Shown here in pieces: positions 12,206 to 56,859 of a stretch of 64,000 nucleotides of DNA. The DNA is from Camelus ferus. Lineage: Eukaryota. The first letter of the stretch is position 1. Every line of letters starts with the position of its first letter. The notes beneath the pieces were generated by a model that made no database searches, was not told the origin of the DNA, and worked only from the letters and a program-made list of their open reading frames with translations. Both the position numbers and the translations under genes were made by a program. Location: assembly GCF_009834535.1 (NCBI RefSeq), contig NC_045696.1, positions 76,200,001-76,264,000 of the forward strand, read 5' to 3'.

Positions 12206-14657
12206 CCAACTATATGCTGCCTATAAGAGACTCACTTCAGCTTTAAAGATACCCACAGGGATCAAAGTGAAGGAACAGAAAAAGAAATTCCATGCAAATG
12301 GAAAATAAAATGTGTGTAGCTACATTTATATCAGGTAAAATAGACTTCAAGTCAAAAACCGTAACAAGAGACCAAGAAGTCATTATATAATGATAAAAGG
12401 ACCAATTAATCAAGAGGATATAACAATTATAAATACATATACATCCAACATCAAAGCACCTAAATACACTGAGCAAATACTAACAGATCTGAAGAAAGAA
12501 ACAGACAACAATATAGTAATAGTAGGGGACTTCAACACACGACTTTCATCAATGGAAAGATCATCCAGACAGAAAAATCAATAAGGAAACATTGGACTTG
12601 AAGTATACTTTAGATCAAATGGACCTAACAGACATTACAGATCATTCTGTCCAACCACAGCAGAATACATATTTTCTCAAGTACACACAGAACATTCTTC
12701 AGGATAGATCATATCATAGGCCATAAAACAGACTTCGTAAATGTAACAAGACTAAAATTATATTAAGTATTTTTTCTGACCACAACAGTATGAAATCAGA
12801 ATCTACAATAAGAGGAAAAATGGAAAATTACAAATGTGTGGAAATTAAATAACATACTCTGAACAATCAATGGGTCAAAGAAGAAATCAACAGTGAAATA
12901 AAAAATTATCTTAAAACAATTTGTTGTTTAATGAAAATTGAAACAACATAGCAAAACTAATGAGATGCAGCAAAAGCAGTTCTAAGAGGGAAGTTTACAG
13001 CAACTAATGCCTATCTTAAAAAGAAAAAGAAAGATCATAAATAAACAAGCTAACTTTGCAAAATAAGAATATATCAAGCACAAAGTTAGCAAAGGAGATA
13101 ACAAAGATCAAAGGAAAAAATAAATGAAATAGAGAATAGAAAAACAATAGAAAAATCAACTAGGAGCTATTTTTTTAAACTATACACAAAATAGACAAAC
13201 CCTTAGCTAGGCTAACCAAGTACAAAAGAAAAAACCCAAATAAAAATTTTAAATAAAGAGGAGACATTACAAGTGACACCACAGAAATACATAGGATCAT
13301 AAGAGACCATTATGAACAATTTTACACCAACAAATTGGACACCCTAGAAGAAATGAACAAATTTCTAAAAGCATACAACTTATTAAGACTGAATTATAAA
13401 GAAACAGAGAATCTGAATAGACCAATAATGAGTAATGAGATTCAATTAGTAATCAAAAATCTTCCAACAAAGAAAGCCTAGGACCAAATGGCTTCACAGG
13501 TGAATTCTACTGAACATTTAAATCATTAATGCTAACCCTTTCCAAATTCCTCCCAAAAGTTGAGGAAGAGGGATCACTCCCAAATTCATTTTACAAAGCC
13601 AGCATTACCCTCATAACAAAGCCAGGTAAGGAAACTACAGGAAAAGTAAACTATAGGTCAATATCCTCAATGAATACAATGCAGAAACCCTCAACAAAAT
13701 ACTAGAAAACTGGATTCAACAGCACAGTTAAGGATCATACATCATGATCAAGTAAGATTTATCCCCGATATGTAAGGATGTTTCAACATATGCAAATCAA
13801 TAAATGTGATACACCACATTAACAGAATGAAAGATAAAAATCATATAATTCTCTCAATATATGAATAAAAAGCATTTGACATAATTCAACATTCTTTTAT
13901 GTTAACAAACTGAATATAGAAGGAACATACCTTCACATAATAAAGATCACATATGACAAGCCTGTAGCTAATATCATACTCAACAGTGAAAAGTTGAATG
14001 CTTTTCCTCCAAGATCAGAAACAAAACAAGGGTACCCACTATCACCACTGCTATTTAACATAGTAATGGAAGTCCTAGCCAGAGAAATTAGGCAAGAAAA
14101 AGAAATAAAAGACATCTAAATCAAATAGGAGAAAGTAAAATGGTCTCTGTTGGCTGATGACATGATCTTGTATTTAGAAAATCCTAAAGACTCGACCCAA
14201 AAACTTTTAAAATAAACAAATTCAATGTTTCAGGATACAAAATCAATATGCAAAAATCAGTCACATTTCTATATACTAATAATGAACTACCTGAAAATTA
14301 ATTTTTTAAAAGATAACATTTCTAATAGCATCAAAAAGAATACTTAGTAATAAATTTAACCAAGGACGTTAAAGATCTATAAACCAAAAATTGTCACTGA
14401 TGAGAGAAATTGAAGAAGACACAAGTAAATAGAAAGATATCCTATGTTCATGGATGGGAAGAGTTGATAAGATTGTTAAAATGTCCATATGACACAAAGC
14501 CATCTATAGATTTAATATAATCTCTATCAAAATCATAGTGGCATTTTTCACAGAATTGTAAGAAACAATCCTAAATTTGTGTGAAACCACAAAAGACCCC
14601 AAACTGCCAAAGCAATCTTGAGAAAGACCAAAGCTTACACTTCCTGACTTCAAACTA

Positions 14658-15144
14658 CAGGCATACCTCATTATATTGTCCTTTACTGTGCTGCACAGAC
14701 ACTGTATTTTTTTTTATCAAATTGAAGATTTGTGGCAACCCTACATGGAGCAAGTCTATCAGCATTATTTTTCCAACAGTATTTTCTCACTTTGTGTCTC
14801 TGTATCACATCTTGGTAATTCTTGAAATATTTCAAACTTTTTCAGTATGATTATATTTCTTATGGTGATCTGTGATCCATGGTCTTTCAAGTTACTATTG
14901 CAAGAAGATTACAACTCAATGAAGGCTCATGATGGTTAGCATTTTTAGCAATAAAGTATTTTTAATTAAGAATTGTACATTTTTAGACATAATGTTGTTG
15001 CACACTTAACAGACTACAGTATAGTGTAAACATAACTTTTACATGCATTGGAAAACCAAAAATTTGTGTGATTCACTTTATTGCAATATTTGCTATATTG
15101 TGGTGGTCTGGAACCAAACCTGCAATATCTCCAATGCATGCCTA
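14658..15144 (+). mobile_element. Tigger1-derived internally deleted DNA transposon (Tigger1a-type) nested in L1
   Basis: TA|CAGGCATACCTC...TGCAATATCTCCAATGCATGCCTA|TA termini with TA duplication; L1 reading PDFKL|YYKAIVIK resumes across it. Confidence 0.9.
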
Positions 15145-18100
15145 TAATATTACAAAGCTATAGTAATCAAAAGAGTTTGATACTGGCATAAAAACAGACA
15201 CACAGACCATTGGAACAGAAATCAGAGCCCAGAAATAAACCTATACATAATATTTGGTCAACTAATACTTGACAAGGTAGCCAAGAATACTCAATTGGGA
15301 AAGGATAGTCTCTTTAATAAACAGTTTAAGGGAAACTGGATACCTACATGGAAAAGAATGAAACTGAATCCCTATCTTACACCACTCACAAATACTAACT
15401 CAAAATGGATTAGGACTTAACATAAGACCTGAAACTCTAAAATTCATAGAACACATAGGAGAAAAGCTCCTTGACATGGGTCTTGGCAATGGTTTTTTTG
15501 GATATGACACCAAAAGTACAAGAAATAAAAGGAAAAATCAACAAGTGGGGCTACACGAAACTAAAAGCTTCTGCATAGTCAATAAAATCAAAAGGCAATC
15601 TATGGAATTGGAGAAAACATTTGCAAATTATATATATATATATCTCTAATAAAGGGTTAATACCCAAAATATAGGATATATATACAACAACATATTGGCT
15701 GTATATACAACTATATACACAACTCAATAGCAAACAAGTAAGAACAAATAATCTGATTTAAAAATGAGCAAATGATTTGAATAGACATTTTTCCAAAGAA
15801 GATATACAGATGGCTGACAGGTACATGAAATGGTGCTCAGCATCCTTAATCATCAGGGAAATGCAAACCAAAATCACCTCACACCTCCTAGAATGGCTAT
15901 TATCAAAAAAGGCAAGAGATAACAAGTATTGGCAATGAGTTGGAGAAAAGGGAACCCTTGTGTACTGTAGGTAGGAATGTAGACTGGTACAGCCACTATG
16001 GAAAACAGTATGGAGGTTCCTCAAAAAATTAAAACTACAACTACCATAAGGTCTAGAAATTCTACTCTGGGTATATACCCAAAGGAAATGAAATCACTAT
16101 ATCAAAGGGATAGATACACTCTCATGTTCATTGCAACATTATTCACGATAGCCAAGATATGGAAACAACCTAGGTGTCCACTAGCAGATGAATGGATAAA
16201 GAAAATGTGGTGTATATAAACAATGGAGTATTATCCAGCCAAATAAATAAATAAATAAGAAAATCCTGCCATTTGTGACAAGATGGATGGACCTTGAGGA
16301 CATTCCACTAAGTTTAATGAGACAGGAAAAAAACATATAATCTCACTTACATGGGGAATCAAAAAAGTCATATTAATAGTAGCAAAGAGTAGAAAGGTGG
16401 TTGCCAGGGGCTGGGGGTTAGGGGAATGAGAAGACATTGGTCAAAGGGTACAAACTTCCAGATATAAGAGGAATAAGTTCCAGTGATCTAATTTATAGCA
16501 CGGTGACTATCATTAACAGTACCATATTGTACACTTGAAAGTTGCTACAATAGTAGATTTTAATTGTTCTCACCATAACAACAACAGCAACTAAATGGGA
16601 ATTATGTGAGGAAAAGAATGTGTTAATGATCACATTGTACATCCTAAACTTACACAAGGTTGTATGTCAATTTATATGTTAATAAAGTTGGGGGAGAAAG
16701 GAATAAGCTGACTGATTTCCCTAAATAATGATGACTGCAGCATTCTAGACATATGCTTGGTTTCCTGAAAAGATTGGTTAATTCCACTAAAGTCTCCTAA
16801 GCAAGCAGTTTATAAACTTTCTTAGTCACTTGGAGCTCACTGGTTGAGTTAAACTCCAGACATACTAACCAACGGATAAACATATCATCAAAATGAATTG
16901 GGTGAGGGGAAGAACCGTAGACTGTCAAGATAAACACAAAATCCTAACAGCGGGTGATGTCTGGAATTATGGGTGATTTTACTTCTTAGCTGGACTTTTC
17001 TGCATTCTTCAAATGTCCTACAACAAGCAAGCATCACCTCTGTAACTAGGAAGAAAGTTATACGTTTTAATATATTTTAAGAATGATGCCCTGTTAGATG
17101 ATGAATGAAATATAAAATTATCATTAAGATCAAGAAGCCATCACATAAATTAGTGATAAAAGAAACCAGCCCAAGATATTTCTCCTTAATAAGTCTCTCG
17201 CAAATCATTAGGGGCCCTCACCCTCCGGATCATTCTTAGAGAAAACTGTCCTGGAGGATTCTGAGGGAATGACAGGACATACTTACTTCCTTTCCTACAT
17301 CAGTGCAAATTACAGTCAAACTTTAATAGATTTTTAGTCTTCCTTTGTTGTGTTACTTATTTAAACTCAGTGTTTTAGAAACGTATTCATTGGAGACATT
17401 ACAGGTACCTGTGTCAGGAGGGACAGAAATCTTCCTGAATGTAGAGCAGGCACAGAGAGATGATGGGCTTGTGTGGAAAGTAAACAATGGTTATCATGGG
17501 CTTTACCCAAATGCTGTGTGATGTTTCTGAAGCCATCCTAATGTCCACCCCTAGGACAGACCCACACATGGCATTTCCCCATCTTCCATCTCCCATCCTA
17601 ACTTCTCCTTTCTCCATTCTTTTCCATCATCTTTTCCTCTTCTGCCCTTTGCTTCTAACCAGAGGTTCTCTTGTCAAGGGCCTAGATGATGATTTATTAT
17701 GTCATTTTAAAGACTTATAAAGGCCTACAGTGCTAAAACATAAAATGAACAAGAACTGACTTGTGTGCGTAAAATACGTCTCTTCCCTCAGAAGAGGGAG
17801 TGGTTTAAAAAGAAAAACAACTTAATCAGCAGAATAGTTTCCAACATAACTGCATTCTGGAAGCCAGGCTAGAGGAAACAAGTTGGATGCTTACTTAACA
17901 GCCCTCGCCAACAATGGTTTCTGAGACCAAAAGAATGGAGCTTTTTGTTTTGTTTCCAGCCTACTTTGTAATAACCACTTGGAGTTTTTCAGTATACTCT
18001 CTGCTCTACATTCAGTTCTTACCTCATTTCTTCCCTCATCTTTGCTTCTAATAGTTGGAGAAGAGTCTCTTACATTTGATTATTGGCAAGTATTCCTATA

Positions 18101-34250: not shown

Positions 34251-34368
34251 TTTTTTTTTGGGGGGGGGGGGGCGGGAGTGGTGGTGATAATTAGATTTAT
34301 TTATTTATTTTTAATTTTTTTTAATGTGGGTACTGGGGATTGAACCCTGAACCCAGGACCTCGTGCAC
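34251..34368 (-). mobile_element. 5'-truncated tRNA-Ala-derived SINE (camelid vic-1-like, long-tail form)
   Basis: Minus strand GTGCACGAGGTCCTGGGTTCAGGGTTCAATCCCCAGTACC (7-bp internal duplication), then AATAAATAAATCTAATTATCACC and C-rich and A-rich tails. Confidence 0.8.
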
Positions 34369-34734
34369 TTCCTTTTCTTTTTATTGTAATAGTTCCTCTT
34401 AAGGTCATTAACTGAGCCTCCAATGGCACTGTGTTAAGTCTTTTATAATCCAAGGTTTAGCCATAGCCCCTACTATGGGATGGGTAAAGTAATTCCAAAC
34501 TGGTTCCCCCACTTGTTAATAGATGCACCCTTAAAAAACAATCTCTTTGATCAAATATGTTCTATATGCAACTCTGAGCTAAAAAAAAAAAAAAGTTAAT
34601 TAGACTTCTTTGTCACAGGAATTTTCAGCCTTTAATATGCTGGTAGGCATTATGAACCTCCAAGAGGAAATAAAGTATTTCCCCAAACATACAACTACAC
34701 AACTTCTTTATAAACAATAATATTTAGAAAGCAC

Positions 34735-40105: not shown

Positions 40106-41160
40106 GACTGTAAGCTATGTGAGGGCAGAGACCTTATGTATTTTTACTCATCATTGCTCTCAACCTCCAGCACAATGCCAGGTTACATAATCACTTTCTG
40201 TAACAATAATCTTCAAATAGAGAAGGTGATTTTCACAATTACCTGGGAAGCCTTTACAAAGCATTCTTGCCCACTCACAAAATTCAACCCATCCCCAACA
40301 GGGTTCATCCCCATAGCTTTGAAACGACAAAGGAAAGAATTTGTTCCCTCTATACAAGGTCCAGTAGCCAAGATCACCTGAATCATTCAGGCAGACTCCC
40401 TTCTTTCCCTGAATTATCTAAGTAATTGCGTAATTGTTTGCTTCACTTTGGTTGCACAGATATTTAGCTCTGCACATAGGTGTGGAAATTGGTTAGTGGC
40501 CAGAGAACATGAAACACATTGCTCCAAAGCATATGTCTACAAACAGGAGTCTGTTTAAATTAAACTGAAATTCAGCCCTAAGAGTTGATTAAAAACAACT
40601 CTAAACCATCAGTTACTGAGTGGTAAGCCCTGAAAGATAAAGCCATCTTTGTCTTTAAATCTAGTTGGAGTGAGAAAACAAGACCACATGAAACTAGAGT
40701 AGTAAACACAGGAACATACCAGGGTCCACAGGTGACAGATTCATGGCACAGAGCAGACATCTTGTAACAGAGTTCAGAAGAGAGGACGAGTGGAAAAATC
40801 CACGACATAAGTTAATAAATAAATAAATGATAGACAGAAAATAATTAAATAAACAAATAAAGCAAGTTACAGTGCAGTATGTTCAGTATGAGCCTCCAGT
40901 GTAAATATTCTTAAATAGAAAGAAAACAAAGCTCCCATACATGTGGCTATATGCTTATATAATCACAGCAAGATAAAAATTAGGAAACTATACAGTAGCA
41001 TATGAGTGGGAGAAGAGACAACTTGAGAAGACTTTTAATTGTTACCTTAAATACAGCTGCAGTATTTGAATCGTTAAAATGAGAGATGATTAGTTTTCTA
41101 ACTCAAGTGACTGAAATTTAAAAATCACCACTATCAAAAATAAATAAATAAATAAAATAG

Positions 41161-41256
41161 AGGTGAGGGATATAGCTCAGTAGTAGAGTGCATGCTTAGC
41201 ATGCACGAGGTCCTGGGTTCAATCCCCAATAGCTTCATTTAAAAAAAAATAAGTTA
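41161..41256 (+). mobile_element. tRNA-Ala(AGC)-derived SINE (vic-1-like, short form)
   Basis: A-box TAGCTCAGTAGTAGAG, anticodon arm GCATGCTTAGCATGC, B-box GGTTCAATCCC, A-tail; flanked on both sides by (TAAA)n as an apparent TSD. Confidence 0.88.
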
Positions 41257-42439
41257 AAAAATAAATAAATAAAGTAAAATATTGTTTAAAGTATTTATCT
41301 TCACATCCACCCCAAAATGATATCAGTCTGAGAGTGGCAGTCTTGGCTCTGTCAATCCTTCTATTATTTTCTCAGGTACAATTAAGTTGAGGAGAAACCC
41401 TCACTTTCCCTGAGTGAGAAGCCCACAGGCTGCTCTCCATCAGGGATCCCTCTCTGCAAAGGGGAACCTTACAGCACATGGGCTGCAGAGAAGCTAGGGA
41501 TTTGGGTTCCACACCCTCCACCCTAGAAAATAAACACATAAATAATACATTTGGTGCCGAAAGAAAATCCTATCACCGTGATTCACAGGCTTACAGTTAG
41601 CAGAAGGCTGCTGGGGTGTGCAATACTTAGGTGGTTGGTGAGGGTGAGTGAAGTTTTAATGTATCTGATAATGCCAAGTGTGAGGAATTAGTCAGAGCTG
41701 GGCTTGTGAGCAGCAGCATTTTAATGATTTACTGAATTTCTCTTAAGGTCAGTAGTTTATGATTTGCCATTTTAAAAATGCAGTGTAAAAAAAATAGATG
41801 TGTATTTTGCTTTACAGGAACTGAATCGTTTTCTAAATGCATTTCTTAAGAGGAGAAAATCAGTACAAATAGCCACTGCCAGCATACCCTGTGTCTAACC
41901 TAATCACATGAACTCCAGCCCAGATAAGCAGCTTTCTGAATGTTATTGGTGGAAATACAGTTTCCAGAAGGAAAAGAGACCATCCTTGGGTCAGAAAGTT
42001 GGTGTTATCAGCTTGCAACATTATTCCTGTTGTATAATTTTACCTCTGAAACTATTATTTCAATTCAAGTGTACTGGAAATTCAGAGTTAGCCTAATCAG
42101 TCATCTCACTCAGGGGCCTTCAAATATATTTCATCATATTCTTAGGTGTCTATATGGCATTCACATTTTCCCTTAGTAGTTAGAGTCATAGGTAGAAAAT
42201 ATGAGTTAATCAAAAAGAGCTGCTGAGCACTGCCTCCAGAAGCACAGCTCTCTGCCCGGAGCCCCAAACTAAGGACCAGACACTTTCCCAACAGGGTGTG
42301 AGCTCTCATCTAAGTGGAAAATTCATGTAGCATCTTACATAAAAATCATACAGAGAGTGAAAAAAACATGGCAAAATTCTCCCCCTCTGACTCCCAGTGA
42401 AAACTCTCTCCCCTGGACCCTGCTGCCTTCTGAGGTGTA

Positions 42440-49820: not shown

Positions 49821-50079
49821 TCAGATGGGGGTCTAGAGTGCAGCCCGGGGCAGTTCCTACTGTGCCTCCCTGGGCCTTGTCTTTGTTTTGTGCCGGTAAA
49901 ATCAGAATAAATGAAAGTCAAGGGCAGCCAGAGGACTGTGGGTGCTGATGGGGGAGGGGCAGTCCCACCCACTTGGCCCAGGTTAAAATGACGGAGGCTG
50001 TTACTTGCTGAGAGCAGATTTGCACTCTTTTTTTTTTTTTTTTCTTAAGCACCAGCTGAATCTCTCTCTCAGTTTCCCT

Positions 50080-50165
50080 CCATACTGAGTCAGTAACCAG
50101 CCCTGGGCGTGGGGTTCTGGCAGCAGTAGCTCTAGCTCTTATCGCTGACACTCCCCACCCCTGCC
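50080..50165 (-). promoter_or_regulatory. Promoter/enhancer motif cluster
   Basis: AP-1 site in pseudo-palindrome TACTGAGTCAGTA 50083-50095, KLF/SP box GGGCGTGGGG 50105-50114, GATA CTTATC 50138-50143, CCCCACCC 50153-50160. Confidence 0.45.
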
Positions 50166-53100
50166 TGCTCCTCCTCCTCTCTCAAGGCTTTCTTTGGTAA
50201 AGGAGAAAAAAACCTATTAAATCCTTTTAGCAGTTCCGAAAATTGTTTACAAGTGATTTTTTCTGAAGGGGCCCCGGGTGTTTGCAAAGCACAGTTGGGT
50301 TATGTGAGATTTTAAAACGTTATTGAACACATTTGCTCTTGTGCAGAATGCATGTACAATTTCACAGAAGAATACTGGGGAGGGGGGCATTTTCTGTAAT
50401 TTTTTCACATATTTATTCAAAGTGCTAAGTGATACTGCATGCATGAACACAACTATTCTTTAAAATTTACCTTTTTCAGATTACATGTTACTATATACTC
50501 ACAACTTCCAATTTTCTACTGAAAATGCATTATACTATATGAACAAAATAATGTATTTTCTCTTTTGATGACATAACTGCTCTAAAACGAATTCAGTATT
50601 TACATCTTCTTTCAGTCAGCAACCATGACTCATAAGATGCAAGTAAGTTTTTGATATATTTGGGGAAGGATGTGTCTTATACACCTGCAAATGCAGTGAT
50701 GTATCTGGATCTGAATGTCCTTATCTACAAAAAGAACTGAACTCCAAGTCCCTTTAGCTCTGAAAGTCTACAATTAGTAATGGCTGTGCCGCAAAGACAA
50801 AGCAAGGTGATTAATTCAGCAGCATTTAAGAAAAAAAAAGTCACTGAAATTAGATTACCTTGGCAGGCAAAAGAAACCCTTCCACTGACTACCTAAAAGT
50901 CATTTTGCAAATACTAATTTCTTAAGTAACTAAAGAATAATGATGTATGCCTTTTTTCCTTAGAAAGGAAATTCCTTTAGAATTGAAGTTAGACTGAAGT
51001 TCCTTGAGGCTAGAACCAATGTTTTGAACTAAGAATGAAATTTCCCAAAACAGAATCAGGAGACATCTCTCATCCTACCAGACAAACAGCCTAACAATGG
51101 AAAAACATACCAAATCCATCAAACAGAACCCAGGTCTCAGAGCTCCAAGCCCAAAGATGGTTTCTTTCCATTGCAATGTTCTGCCATCAAGAAGTCCAAT
51201 GTGAGAAGCTTCTAGGGAGAGACAATGAATTACAATTAGGAGGAAGACATCCAAGGCCACTGTGATAGTCATGAGCTATATAAGGATCCTAAAGTGCTGG
51301 CACTGGCACTGCCAGCAATATTTCCTTAAGGAAATGCTCCCCAGCAAGGAAACTTTATAAAACACTTGGACTGAGCACTTGAGGATGGGGCCTGTGTTGG
51401 CTGACATTTGCTCTGAGACCCTTCGCTACAGAGCCTGGTAGCACCCAGGTGAGCACTCATCTTGAGCAGACAGCGCTGGCCCAGTGCTATAAGGCAGCTC
51501 TAGGGATCTGGGGACCAGAGCAGTAATGCTCTCAGAGGTGGCATGCACATTCTCAGTTTCCAATTCTGTGTTGTCAGAACTGAAGGGAAACAGTGAGAAA
51601 CGACTTAGCCGCTTTTCCAGATGCTTTTGACCAAGCAGCATATATAAAAAAGAAAATCTGACTTGACAAAAGCAACAAAGAGAGAAATAGGTTCTATTTG
51701 CCCATTAATTTTAGCTGGAATGTGGTCTACTGATTATTTTAAAAAAATACTAACATAGCTTTTCTGTTTCCCTGTTGTACGCTAGCAATTTCATTCAGTC
51801 CAAGAGTCTTAAGACTGGCTGTTAGAAGCCTAGGGTTTTCATCCCTAGTCACCACCATCTCCTGGCCTTGGCCTTTGACTTCTTACTGCTTCACTGTGGC
51901 TCACTACAATGTCATTTTTAATTACTGTCCTTCCCTACATCAAACGAATGCTGTGAGGACAAATGAGATGGCTCAATGTTACCTACTTTTCTATCCATAT
52001 GATGCTCTGATTTGCAAAGACCACATTGGGTTCTGGACTGGAAAACTACAGGGTTGTGCCAGAAATGAAAGGAATCAGAATGCAACCAGGTGGAAACCCA
52101 GTAGGACACAGAGGCAGAGATCCAGGCCAGGGTTGGAACACTGAACTGGCCACAATCTCACATATCAAGGTTATGCCCAGTCCCCCAAAGTACACATTTG
52201 TGTGGTACATCTGTGAACATCTTGGAGTCATTCGGGACTCAATTGTATCATTGTTTGAACTGTCAGGTGCAAAATCAGAGGAATTATGCTACAGAGATTT
52301 TCTTCCTTTTACCACGGAGTATTTTTCTTTGTGTTGGCCAGGCCTTGAGTCCCTCTTTATTGCCAAAGTTCTTATAATGACTGAACAAATCATTTTAATT
52401 CACTTGGGTCCAACTAAGTTACTTTTGCAGCCCCTTCTGGCTTTGGCAAATCCAAGGGAACTTAAGCAGCCAGGCAACAGGAATGAAGTCCTCAAATGGG
52501 GCTGAACAACGCGGCCCTCCTCCCTTTACACCCAGTCTCTCTCTCCCTTCCTTTCCAGTTGTACTTATCACCTCCCAAAGTCCCAGAAGTGTCTCCCACC
52601 ATTGACACCCATGAGGAAACCAGCAGAAGGGGTAGGATGGGAGCAATGCTGCTCTTTGTCACTGTTAATTATGAGCTGGTTATCTGATCTGCTGTGACTT
52701 GCTCTTTCTGGAAAGGTCTGCATAATTTGGCAAAAGAATTCCAAGATTCTCATTTATTGTAAATCACGCCTTTGCCAATGGCTTTTGTCAGGGCTCCCGA
52801 TTTCACCTCATGTCTCTGCTCTCCACTTTTGCAAATGCACTCATCTGTGAAAATGAATTAAACAGATTAAAAAGCAGCTTTTCTTATTCACTGGAATAAA
52901 AATGGACAAATGCAGACATGGCACATCCTCATATGCAACTCCACGAAAAAAAATTACTTCAAACAGGAGGGTAGCCTGACTCTCCAGGGGAAACAAACCC
53001 AGAGAACACTCTATGACTCAAGTTAAACTGGTCCTGTAATCTAGAGTGACATTCTACTTAATGACAGCCCACAATGATAATCCAATTACTAGGCTTTCAA

Positions 53101-54011
53101 CAAACTCATACCATAATGACATCATACATTCTTGTAATTAAAGTTGATATTTATATAAAGTGGTTCTTCCTCTTTTTAGAGAGAGAAACATAATGTTAAA
53201 TAACTCTCATCTTATTGAGATCTCTCAGTTCACAAATCTGTAGATCCAAAACATTCAAAATGAGTGTTTACAGCTGCATGTTATCCTTAACAGATGAAGA
53301 TTCTAGGTGCCATTTTGACCCCACCTGCCAGACCAGGACTAAGCTAAAAGCAACTTCCACAGGAACGCTTGGAGTGTCCCAGAGCACCACCATGGTACAA
53401 CATGGGGGCTGAAGTCATTGGAGACCTTGCACATTTCAGACAAGTGGCACCGTTGAGGATTCCAGGACTGCCACACTGCACAGCTCCAGCAAGCAGCACT
53501 CACACGGAGGCGTCACATGTCTGGTGACCTCCAGAGATGGAATGCAGACTGTATGTGCAAACTAAACAGTAGCCTTGAATGTCTTTATGAAAGAATTCAC
53601 ACTTTGGTTTTCTTGTTTATTTGCTTAATGTTGTTTGCTTCCTGTAGAGGAAGGGCTAGTGGAAGCAGAGAGGAGAGGAAGCACACTTTGTTACCCAAGC
53701 AACGAGCCACCCTCACCACCCCTTGAAGCTCTGGTTCTTAATTTAAAATGAAGTTTGCAAGGTTTGGTAGCCAAAGTTCCCTCATCTCTGTGCTAGATAA
53801 TCTGATCTTCCGCTCCAGGGTTTGTCATGAAGAATAAATGAGTTAAAGCATGAATATTTTACAGTTCTGTACCTAGAGAATGGTTAAGTGCTCATTTAAG
53901 AGTAGTTATTTTTGCCATTGTGATTACTCATACTATTATTTCCTAAATAAGTTTAGATGAATAGAACATGAAACCACGGGTCTCACAACAAGCAGCAAGA
54001 AAGAGTTTCCC

Positions 54012-54516
54012 AGGGGAGAGTATAGCTTAAGTGGTAGAGTGCATGTTCAGCATGCACAAAGTCCTGGGTTTGATCCCTAGTACCTCCTCTAAAAATAAAT
54101 AAACCTGATTACCTCCTCCCCTAAAAACCAAAATAAACAAACAAACAAACAAATAAATAAATAAAATACAATAGCAAATAAATAAAATATTTTAGAAACA
54201 CAGCCTCTCAAGCCCCACCTTCCCCATAACCAGATATTGAGGCCAGGCTTGGTAAGCCTGAGTGACAGCAATACATCCTAAACATGACATGTCCATGGGC
54301 TACCCAAGGGAATTTTATTGCAAAAACATGAACAACACTAATATTCCTATAATTTCAATCACTGAGTTATACACCGATTATTGATTTCTAATCGTAACAG
54401 GGTCAGAAAAAAAATGGTCTGTATGCTACTTATTCTTCGGCTGATGGGGTTTATTTTTGCCGAAGTATTTTAATAAAGACTGCATGTTATCCGGGAAAAA
54501 AAAAAAAAAAAAAAAA
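54012..54516 (+). mobile_element. tRNA-Ala SINE (54013-~54189) plus ~305 bp unique 3' segment plus A21, all inside one TSD
   Basis: TSD AAGAGTTTCCC at 54001-54011 and 54518-54528; AATAAA 54472-54477; A21 54496-54516. Confidence 0.8.
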
Positions 54517-54687
54517 GAAGAGTTTCCCTCTTGCAGATGGGTAAAAGCATAGCTGAAGCCAGCGTCATCACAACACAGCAGCTCTTCAATGAACCAGCTC
54601 AGGACTCTCAGGAATATTGGCACAGTGACACAAGGTACTGAATCCTCTGCATTCACTTGTCATTTTAAACTTCTCACATATCTGTTT

Positions 54688-54880: not shown

Positions 54881-56065
54881 ATCACTATGTCCACTTTACA
54901 ATGGAAGAGAACTGAGGCATAAAGAGTGACTGACCACGTTAATCAGAGAACACAGACAGTAGAAACAAACAGGAAATGATTTATGTATGTCACAAGCAGT
55001 GATGAAGTGGGATGAGGGGAGGGAAATTACTCTTTTCTAATTACACAGGAACCCCTTGTAGACATTCACCACAGTGAAAATTCAGTCATGATGAGTTACT
55101 GCTAATGACAGGAATGTGTTATATTCCTTAAGGTCTGAAGACCAAAAAAGGTAAAAGTGCTGAAAAGAACTCAAATTTTCTTTCAGTGTACTTGGGGGCA
55201 GAGTAAAGGGGAGAAATCACAAGTCTGAAACACCTCAATACAAGGAAAGCAAATCCCTCAACACCCCAGTTTCATCTCGGGACTTTAATACCTGTCAGCC
55301 ATATGTCACAAAACTGTATAGATCAGCACCCAGTGAAAGCCTGTATAATTTGTAATCCTCTTTAAGTGATATTAACATCCTATTTCCTCTCAGCCTCTCA
55401 TTCTGTCATTGGTAGTATAGCATTTAGAAGCCTTTTTTTTTTTTTTTGAAAGTCTTTACCACTGTTTTATTGAAGTCAGTGAAAAAGTACAATTCTACAT
55501 GATGAAATTCATGACACAGCCAACGCTTCAGGAACATGCCTATCTTCAAGTAAGGAGAGACACCTAAGCTGTGCTCCCTCAGCTTTGTGTAAAGAGGAGT
55601 AAACGGTGGTGTCCTGTGCCTATGTAGGGAGCACAGCTGGTTCAGTCCTGGGGCTTCATTTTGAGCCTCTGAATAAATTTCCTAGCTTGAAAGGAAGCTG
55701 TGGCTTCTGCTTTGCAATGAGCTCAGGCTTTCTTCGTTGGAAGTCTTCAGAGCTGAAAGCCAGGTTTGACCTGAGGTGATCCATGACTTTTTCCTGGGTA
55801 CTTTGGACCCTATGTATGAAAGGACACCTGAGCGTTTGCTAAGGGAAACAGAAGCTTCTGAACTCATTTGTGTGCTAGCAAAGGCTTGGCTTCCATGCAG
55901 GATCATGCACGATGAGCCTAACTTTTCCTTTATTTTTTTTTTCCCCACATCTAGCTGTTCTTTTCATTGCTTAGTTAAAAAAAAAAAAACATTCAAAAGT
56001 GTCGAAAAATTATAAATGTGATGCTAGGATCATAGAAAACATTTAGAATGATTTCAGCAAATCTT

Positions 56066-56152
56066 GGAGGGAGGGTATAGCTCACTGGTAGAGCACATGC
56101 TTAGCATGCACAAGGTCTTGGGCTTAATCCCCAGTACCTCCATTTAAAAAAA
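56066..56152 (+). mobile_element. tRNA-Ala(AGC)-derived SINE (vic-1-like, short form)
   Basis: GGGAGGGTATAGCTCACTGGTAGAGCACATGCTTAGCATGCACAAGGTCTTGGGCTTAATCCCCAGTACCTCCA plus A-tail; TSD GATTTCAGCAAATCT 56050-56064 / 56171-56185. Confidence 0.88.
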
Positions 56153-56859
56153 TTTCAGCAAATTTCAGTAGATTTCAGCAAATCTACTATACACACCCAT
56201 ACACACATACACACTGACTATGGGGACAGAGAAGTGGGAGAAGGGAGGATGGAAGTAATAATGTCTGCATTTAATTCCAAAACATTAAAAAGTTTCAAAA
56301 TCACATGCCTCATTTTCAAGTCAAGAAATATTTCTGGAACACCAATCATCCATGGGCCAACTACCAGGGGATGGGGTGTGTGAGGTGCTGAGGAAGAGAG
56401 TTGGAGGGGACAAGAGAGATCAAAAGCAATTAACACCAGTCCCTGGAATATGCAGAGCACTAGAGTTGGTGTGGGAAGGGCTAACGACACCTCTCAAACT
56501 TTTCCAGGCTTCCAGAAGCCTGCTGTCTAGCTGGAGGATGAGGAACACTGATGGAATAAAAAAGGAAAAAAAGAAAGAAAACCTCACAGACAACAAGTGG
56601 TAATAGTAAGTCAGAGAAAGGAAAGATTTCCTAAGAGACATTTAGGACATCTGACCTTCAGCAACCCTCAGGAGGCTCCTAATATCTAATGGTAAAGGAG
56701 CCAAATGCCATTTTAAAAATGGGAACATGTACCAATTTATTGTAGAAAATCCTATTTTAAAGGTATTCATTCTCAAATATTTATGGGGCATCTAATAAGC
56801 CAGCACTGGAGAAATACAGATACATTTGTCTGGGTCCGGGCATTCAAATTACTTGCTGA

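Follow-up and report, generated by a model that had tools for sequence, protein, structure and literature searches.

A decayed tRNA-Ala SINE and a copied polyadenylated RNA end within one target-site duplication in Camelus ferus

INTRODUCTION

Insertions in which a SINE and a second, polyadenylated sequence lie within one target-site duplication (TSD) are a known kind of event. In the Alu/LINE-1 chimeras described by Law and Burns (2026; PMC13174262), a full-length sense SINE stands on the 5′ side, a 5′-truncated polyadenylated partner on the 3′ side, and one TSD of 11–17 bp encloses both. The composite insertion reported here, from the genome of Camelus ferus, has the same layout, but the partner (hereafter the passenger) is not recognisably L1, and the SINE is tRNA-derived and looks older than the sequence behind it. 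For the Alu/LINE-1 chimeras, cross-species alignment showed the partners to be contemporaneous (PMC13174262), whereas our comparison draws on the sequence of one genome. The composite resembles an L1-made retrocopy joined to a SINE.

U6/L1 and U6/processed-pseudogene chimeras were reportedly described by Moldovan et al. in 2019. Chimeras of both kinds, as presented by Doucet et al. (2015; PMC4476161), share with our locus a copy of a Pol III RNA, a T-run at the junction, an mRNA-like 3′ end, a poly(A) and a single TSD. Unlike U6, which is a functional and abundant RNA, the SINE head at our locus is decayed and its B box is mutated. Successive insertion provides another precedent. Weber (2006; PMC1687206) described a SINE and a retrocopy lying side by side at one L1 target, and the type-2 and type-3 snoRNA retroposons of that study have a small-RNA 5′ end followed by host sequence up to a poly(A) signal. 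Both arrangements recall ours, but the dual insertions presented there each had a TSD or a triplicated site, of which none is visible here, and no snoRNA was found in our passenger.

The T+ SINEs B2, Dip, Ves and Can likewise have a tRNA-derived head first and an AATAAA before the poly(A) (PMC8466645, PMC12358842, PMC9599045). According to these papers, the AATAAA is part of the family consensus, polyadenylation of the Pol III transcript depends on AAUAAA, and the poly(A) follows TCTTT or TTTT. At our locus, by contrast, 300 bp of sequence foreign to the family and three T-runs precede the AATAAA, and GGG precedes the poly(A). Finally, a 3′ TSD that lies far from the element, after unique sequence and a poly(A), is seen here as it is in L1 and SVA 3′ transductions, and it is what Halabian et al. 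(10.1101/2024.04.29.591526) searched for in Alu. The distant-TSD AluY elements of that study were explained by mutated tails or chance; unlike them, our passenger is complex and carries a real poly(A) signal, its source element being putative.

RESULTS

The window, by which we mean the whole 64,000-nucleotide stretch that was analysed, has 39.7% GC and contains CpG at 0.14 of expectation. An 11-bp direct repeat in it encloses, in this order, a tRNA-Ala SINE, 306 bp that are single-copy in the window, an AATAAA and an A21, all on the + strand. The repeated word, AAGAGTTTCCC, is found at 54001–54011 and at 54518–54528, and these are its sole two copies in the 64 kb on either strand. Sequence comparison extends the repeat to 15 nt on the left (53997–54011) and 14 nt on the right (54515–54528), where one A is missing, so that 14 of 15 positions match with one indel. 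One extra A (54012) separates the left copy from the SINE head. In a null test with fixed geometry, in which a word had to end 0–3 nt before one point and start again 0–3 nt after another point 100–1,500 nt away, an exact match of at least 11 nt arose in only 3 of 200,000 random position pairs. The initial annotation had placed a TSD with these coordinates 1 nt before the head and extendable with one indel, as we confirm; the coincidental 11-bp match that it allowed for is ruled out for this geometry.

Since the TSD is far beyond the null expectation, the A21 is preceded by AATAAA and the passenger is without a second copy in the window, the polyadenylated composite bounded by the TSD is real: a decayed SINE and a copied polyadenylated RNA end lie within one duplication. 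The length of the TSD is within the roughly 7–20 bp expected for TPRT, and the poly(A) stands directly before the 3′ copy, as is typical of that process. These data support retroinsertion of the L1 type, with a processed and polyadenylated RNA end on the 3′ side. The L1 endonuclease prefers TT/AAAA (PMC13174262); the 15-nt reading of the TSD puts the bottom-strand nick at TCTT/GC, a weak fit, and the 11-nt reading gives none. Between head and passenger a third TSD copy is absent, the best match being 9 of 15, which was also the commonest value among 2,000 random stretches. Target-site triplication was rejected on this ground, and the earlier statement that the end of the SINE tail has no copy of the TSD agrees with this chance-level match.

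The SINE head (54013–54088) was identified as tRNA-Ala(AGC)-derived from an Rfam match, the anticodon loop and the other copies in the window. The Rfam tRNA alignment covers 54016–54088 (22.7 bits, E 0.13, under the gathering score), from which it follows that the SINE starts 3 nt ahead of tRNA position 1; ARAGORN found no tRNA in the head. The anticodon loop carries AGC (Ala) at 54049–54051. The A box (54023–54034) is intact and the B box (54067–54077) has a T in place of a conserved C at 54071, a change that may be later than the insertion event. By eye, about 9 of 73 head positions deviate from the majority of the other window copies. A linker, first A-rich and then C-rich, occupies 54089–54120; it is family sequence rather than passenger, since the 5′-truncated copy on the − strand also has it (34277–34306). 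What follows (54121–54187) reads as a decayed A-rich tail, now made of short-unit repeats, in which the longest pure A run is 5. This tail terminates in T/AAAA (54183/54184–54187), a canonical L1 endonuclease motif, and its boundary with the passenger is placed to within about 25 nt.

The family, which we take to be vic-1, has three further copies in the window (34.3 kb on the − strand, 41.2 kb and 56.1 kb). SINEBase lists vic-1 for camels as a simple SINE, and a survey of camel transposable elements classes nearly all camel SINEs as MIR. Identity of the focal SINE to the 41.2- and 56.1-kb copies is 81–82%. The SINE had been called visibly diverged, which holds in that it is decayed and without CpG, but its divergence is about equal to that of its neighbours. 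The 15-bp TSD of the 56.1-kb copy (56052–56185) is perfect, and, as in the focal copy, one extra base stands ahead of the head. Since an equally diverged element shows both, the focal event cannot be dated, or taken as young, from a near-perfect TSD or from the extra A. Between the short tail of that copy and its right TSD lie extra partial copies of the TSD word, which look like a local duplication of the target site. The 41.2-kb copy (41136–41282), with one CpG left, is inserted in an (AAAT)n tract and has a TSD of 17 bp exact, or about 24 bp with one indel. The copy at 34270–34370 (−) is a 5′-truncated long form in which a short internal piece at the B box is duplicated; it also has a C-rich stretch, and its tail is (GA)n.

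The passenger (54188–54495, about 306 bp, its boundary at the tail uncertain by about 25 nt) gave no second copy in the 64-kb window with blastn, and the best non-self hit with nhmmer had an E of 0.46. It had been called unique, which we can uphold as single-copy within the 64 kb. The Rfam search gave no RNA family homologue of the passenger, and no snoRNA was detected in it either; an 18-nt match to REN-SRE, at 19 bits against a cut-off of 41, was put down to chance. Its RNA folds no better than shuffled sequences (z 0.26). Searches with a 31-aa passenger frame returned two matches, both short and to unrelated repetitive proteins, and searches with 40-aa and 78-aa frames returned no protein homologue. 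These searches covered two forward frames, and one reverse frame was included in the Pfam scan described below. The idea that 54190–54196 is the splice acceptor of a last coding exon was dropped, as neither the 31-aa frame nor the second forward frame has a homologue. Neither coding homology nor exon junctions, as expected of a processed pseudogene of a coding gene, were thus seen, which still fits a copy of UTR sequence only.

Sources elsewhere were sought with pattern and word searches. The passenger matches no plasmid or phage, and a vector or phage origin was rejected. Pattern scans gave 0 hits in metagenome contigs and 0 in viral contigs, and no mammalian source was found in them; 12 exact 19-mer matches had no homology past the seed, and all 38 loci matching the SINE-head pattern were read as bacterial or phage tRNA genes. 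When 32 passenger words were looked up in sequencing runs, 20 of the 24 listed runs contained some of them, 19 at least half, and 4 none. All 32 words were present in six runs, of which two are recorded as RNA-seq, one is guessed to be RNA and three are of no stated type. Among the other runs, the fraction was 0.97 in 12 genome-sized contig sets from two organisms, 0.84 in one run guessed to be RNA and 0.31 in a third organism. We treat the matches in RNA runs as a lead towards an expressed, near-identical source and not as evidence, as they reflect word content rather than alignment to a locus. Given about 800 million letters of contigs, the two RNA-seq runs may carry the passenger as DNA or pre-mRNA. 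The fraction is 0.97 in all 12 genome-sized sets and 1.00 in the six smaller ones; should the poly(A) junction be the word that is missing, the former may lack the insertion.

At its 3′ end the passenger has the signals of a Pol II transcript, as read from the sequence of 54420–54477: TGTA at 54420, U-rich stretches and AATAAA at 54472–54477. The pure A21 (54496–54516) begins 18 nt after the AATAAA, as initially described. The window has 10 A/T runs of at least 12 nt, and this one exceeds the other nine in length. An AATAAA stands upstream of two of these 10 runs, the background being 2.8%. The A21 is joined after GGG, with no remnant of a T terminator, and no T-run of at least 3 lies between the AATAAA and the A21. 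A poly(A) set at a Pol III terminator just behind AATAAA, by which polyadenylation of the T+ SINE type would be recognised, is therefore not what this junction shows. The passenger contains T4 at 54190, 54313 and 54468 and T5 at 54454, the four runs already listed in the initial annotation. Ordinary Pol II cleavage and polyadenylation very probably, at the least, made this 3′ end. Just upstream of the AATAAA, 54435–54441 can pair with 54459–54465 in a perfect 7-bp stem with paired CpGs, the only one with CpG among 195 such stems in the window; it could be a conserved 3′-end element of the source transcript.

CpG content differs between the two parts of the insert, with 0 in 108 bp of SINE versus 5 in the passenger; at least 5 CpGs occur in 4.2% of 306-bp stretches of the window. 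All five lie in 54371–54495, the first 181 bp of the passenger being without CpG, and their clustering in the last 125 bp is not significant (permutation P 0.07). A two-part age of the passenger (0 CpG, then 5) was not relied on, since the split was picked post hoc and P is 0.07. By eye, the SINE family copies in the window retain about 2 of 8 scorable CpG sites. The probability of keeping 5 of 5–7 CpGs would be 0.001–0.10 at a retention of 0.25–0.4, and 0.08–0.59 at a retention of 0.6. Judged by composition, the SINE appears to have been at this site for longer than the passenger. The initial annotation had noted several CpGs and an uninterrupted A21 in the passenger, and these are indeed present. 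Its reading of an older SINE and a recent event finds agreement in the younger look of the passenger (5 versus 0 CpG, A21).

The window contains 567 stop-free frames of at least 45 aa, and a Pfam scan of the longest 150 gave pieces of L1 endonuclease and reverse transcriptase at 12–14 kb. It gave no clear host exon, in a scan that short exons escape. The L1 matches, under the curated cut-offs, belong to an old L1 fragment at 12300–16250 (+). A sub-threshold match to CID_GANP at 49921–50181 (−) (E 0.00026, 21.7 bits against 26.7) is probably due to chance among 150 frames. Immediately upstream of the insertion, 53840–53940 resembles what we assume to be the 3′ end of a MIR. Downstream, at 54520–54636, a pyrimidine tract and CAG come after the target site, and AG/GTACTG stands about 100 nt further on, an arrangement that resembles a small exon; since none of the three frames is open, this stretch is non-coding at most.

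DISCUSSION

The explanation that we place first, tentatively and at a probability of about 0.35, is that two insertions followed one another: an old SINE with its own TSD and, later, a 5′-truncated retrocopy at the T/AAAA end of the SINE tail. The odds behind this and all other readings are rough estimates of rates rather than values computed on genomes. Long ago, a camelid tRNA-Ala SINE would have inserted and created the 15-bp TSD, which on this reading belongs to the SINE alone. The head, now free of CpG, would then have lost its CpGs, while the tail decayed to the short repeats seen today. Much later, the L1 endonuclease would have cut the last T/AAAA of the tail, and L1 reverse transcriptase would have copied an unrelated Pol II transcript at its cleaved and polyadenylated 3′ end; candidates for this transcript are an mRNA 3′ UTR, a lncRNA, an orphan L1 transduction and an LTR transcript. 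Copying may have halted after about 300 nt and joined the A-rich tail, with a second duplication of at most 4–5 A hidden in the A21. The SINE would most likely be a landing pad and passive partner, next to which the L1 machinery placed an ordinary transcript end.

Successive insertion, which the initial annotation had not considered, is the simplest way to explain a young tail behind an old SINE. It predicts the age mismatch directly, that is, a SINE with 0 CpG and tail runs of at most 5 beside a passenger with 5 CpGs and A21. It is also consistent with the Pol II 3′-end signals without a terminator remnant, and it does without transcription of a head whose B box is broken and without a truncation that stops at the head by chance. 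The SINE tail ends in a canonical T/AAAA; the 41.2-kb SINE, with its 17-bp TSD in (AAAT)n, indicates that such tracts are targets in this window, and the perfect 15-bp TSD of the equally diverged 56.1-kb copy indicates that an old TSD can look good. Retroposons and SINEs do insert successively at overlapping or identical sites (Weber 2006, PMC1687206). Several observations count against it. Around the passenger no second TSD longer than 5 bp was found, a 4-A duplication at the T/AAAA site being possible; among dimorphic dog SINEs 83% are reported to have a TSD of at least 10 bp (PMC13141329), which makes 5 bp or fewer, or none, a minority outcome. Each element in the dual insertions presented by Weber had its own TSD (PMC1687206), and target-site triplication is lacking here. 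Since no remnant of the decayed tail lies between the A21 and the TSD, the nick must sit at the very last site of the tail. In addition, the CpG argument fails at a retention of 0.6, the clustering of the CpGs has a P of 0.07, and one-event insertions of a full-length SINE with a partner are common, with 452 Alu/L1 cases described (PMC13174262).

Alternatively, both parts may have arrived in one event, a possibility that ranks next behind two successive insertions and is a serious option. L1 reverse transcriptase, primed on an unrelated poly(A), would have switched to a free Pol III transcript of the SINE (or the RNAs would have been ligated) and copied it to its 5′ end. This is the architecture of the Alu/L1 chimeras, which lie in one TSD and whose Alu is mostly full-length and sense (PMC13174262), and of the U6/mRNA chimeras (PMC4476161). 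Consistent with it, the SINE's own 5′ end, 3 nt ahead of tRNA position 1, is where the insert begins, a full-length sense SINE stands 5′ of a 5′-truncated partner, and the TSD is single, without triplication. The first T4 (54190), where a Pol III transcript would be expected to end, is also at the junction, although a T4 is found in 18% of 30-nt stretches. However, the Alu families in the published chimeras were active when inserted (PMC13174262). If the event is old, the CpGs and A21 of the passenger should have decayed like the SINE, and the difference in CpG content speaks mildly against equal ages; a young event would require SINE RNA made from a decayed copy whose B box is mutated. The template switch named in the initial annotation thus keeps its weight as a contender without being the leading reading. 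Taken jointly with two successive insertions, it makes a passenger source with no SINE upstream somewhat probable.

A less likely explanation is that the SINE was already part of the Pol II transcript that was copied, in a 3′ UTR, a last exon or a read-through from an upstream L1, and that the L1 retrocopy was 5′-truncated at the SINE head, the SINE moving passively. An old SINE, a young tail, one TSD and a Pol II end would all be accounted for, and the T-runs would be irrelevant. The first 181 bp of the passenger, without CpG, look like DNA long resident beside the SINE. Parents of processed pseudogenes are reported to be enriched for 3′ UTR SINEs (PMC5199112), and the snoRNA retroposons illustrate that a structured RNA can set a 5′ end (PMC1687206). 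Against this, the truncation has to fall within about 1 nt of the SINE start, which we estimate to occur in a few per thousand cases unless a special mechanism acts, and the 5′ end is not at the RNase P position.

It is doubtful that the passenger comes from the 3′ end of a camelid repeat that has not been annotated (such as an LTR U3–R piece), that the locus is native sequence in which the direct repeat arose by chance, or that the assembly is in error here. In an LTR, U3 precedes R, and a TATA-like word at 54348 does stand ahead of the CpG-bearing last 125 bp. Yet chance is excluded for the TSD geometry by the null test (3/200,000), the 64 kb hold no second copy of the passenger, and even a passenger derived from a repeat would have to take one of the other routes to arrive with a poly(A).

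The least favoured route is transduction driven by the SINE, in which a Pol III transcript from the SINE 5′ end would run about 480 nt through four T-runs, undergo mRNA-type (CPSF) cleavage and polyadenylation at the AATAAA, and be retrotransposed. The start of the insert does coincide with that of the SINE, T4 lets some transcripts through (65% termination in B2; PMC8466645), CPSF components are recruited to Pol III SINE loci (PMC12358842), and Halabian et al. cite two Alu precedents (10.1101/2024.04.29.591526). At B2 efficiencies, however, all four T-runs would be read through in about 0.04–0.4% of cases, and T5, described as about 100% efficient in B2 (PMC8466645), is found here 18 nt upstream of the AATAAA. 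Known Pol III polyadenylation needs CPSF30 and not the CPSF73 nuclease, and follows the end of a T-tract (PMC12358842), whereas the A21 here follows GGG. The A box is intact, but the B box is mutated and the head is without CpG. Halabian et al. report 0 confirmed cases among 118,489 full-length AluY and require that transduced DNA contain no T4 or longer run (10.1101/2024.04.29.591526); ours contains T4, T4, T5 and T4. Nor did the literature searched, mostly papers outside subscription, describe 3′ transduction by any tRNA-SINE, camelid or otherwise, and the portions of the dog SINE literature that were consulted mention transduction only for L1. Given the Pol II-type 3′ end, the four T-runs and the mutated B box, SINE-driven transduction is improbable, and the proposal that this SINE family could move host sequence by Pol III read-through is not supported, the T5 before the AATAAA and the GGG junction also speaking against it.

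On the likely readings, the locus is one more composite retroinsertion, and a SINE head, unique DNA, a poly(A) and a distant TSD do not by themselves amount to SINE transduction. The composite is possibly useful as a presence/absence marker in camelids. Judged from its sequence, the insertion brings the complete upstream half of a poly(A) signal to a new place, where any effect is hypothetical. Should this SINE also stand upstream at the source, outside any longer Pol II transcript, the locus would be among very few SINE-led transductions; it would then bear on mRNA-like cleavage of Pol III transcripts, and the SINE family could move host 3′-end signals. A minor observation concerns the sequence downstream of the insertion: at 55433–55447 (−), an A15 has an AATAAA upstream, the sole other such pair in the window, and it is possibly the 3′ end of another retroinsertion.
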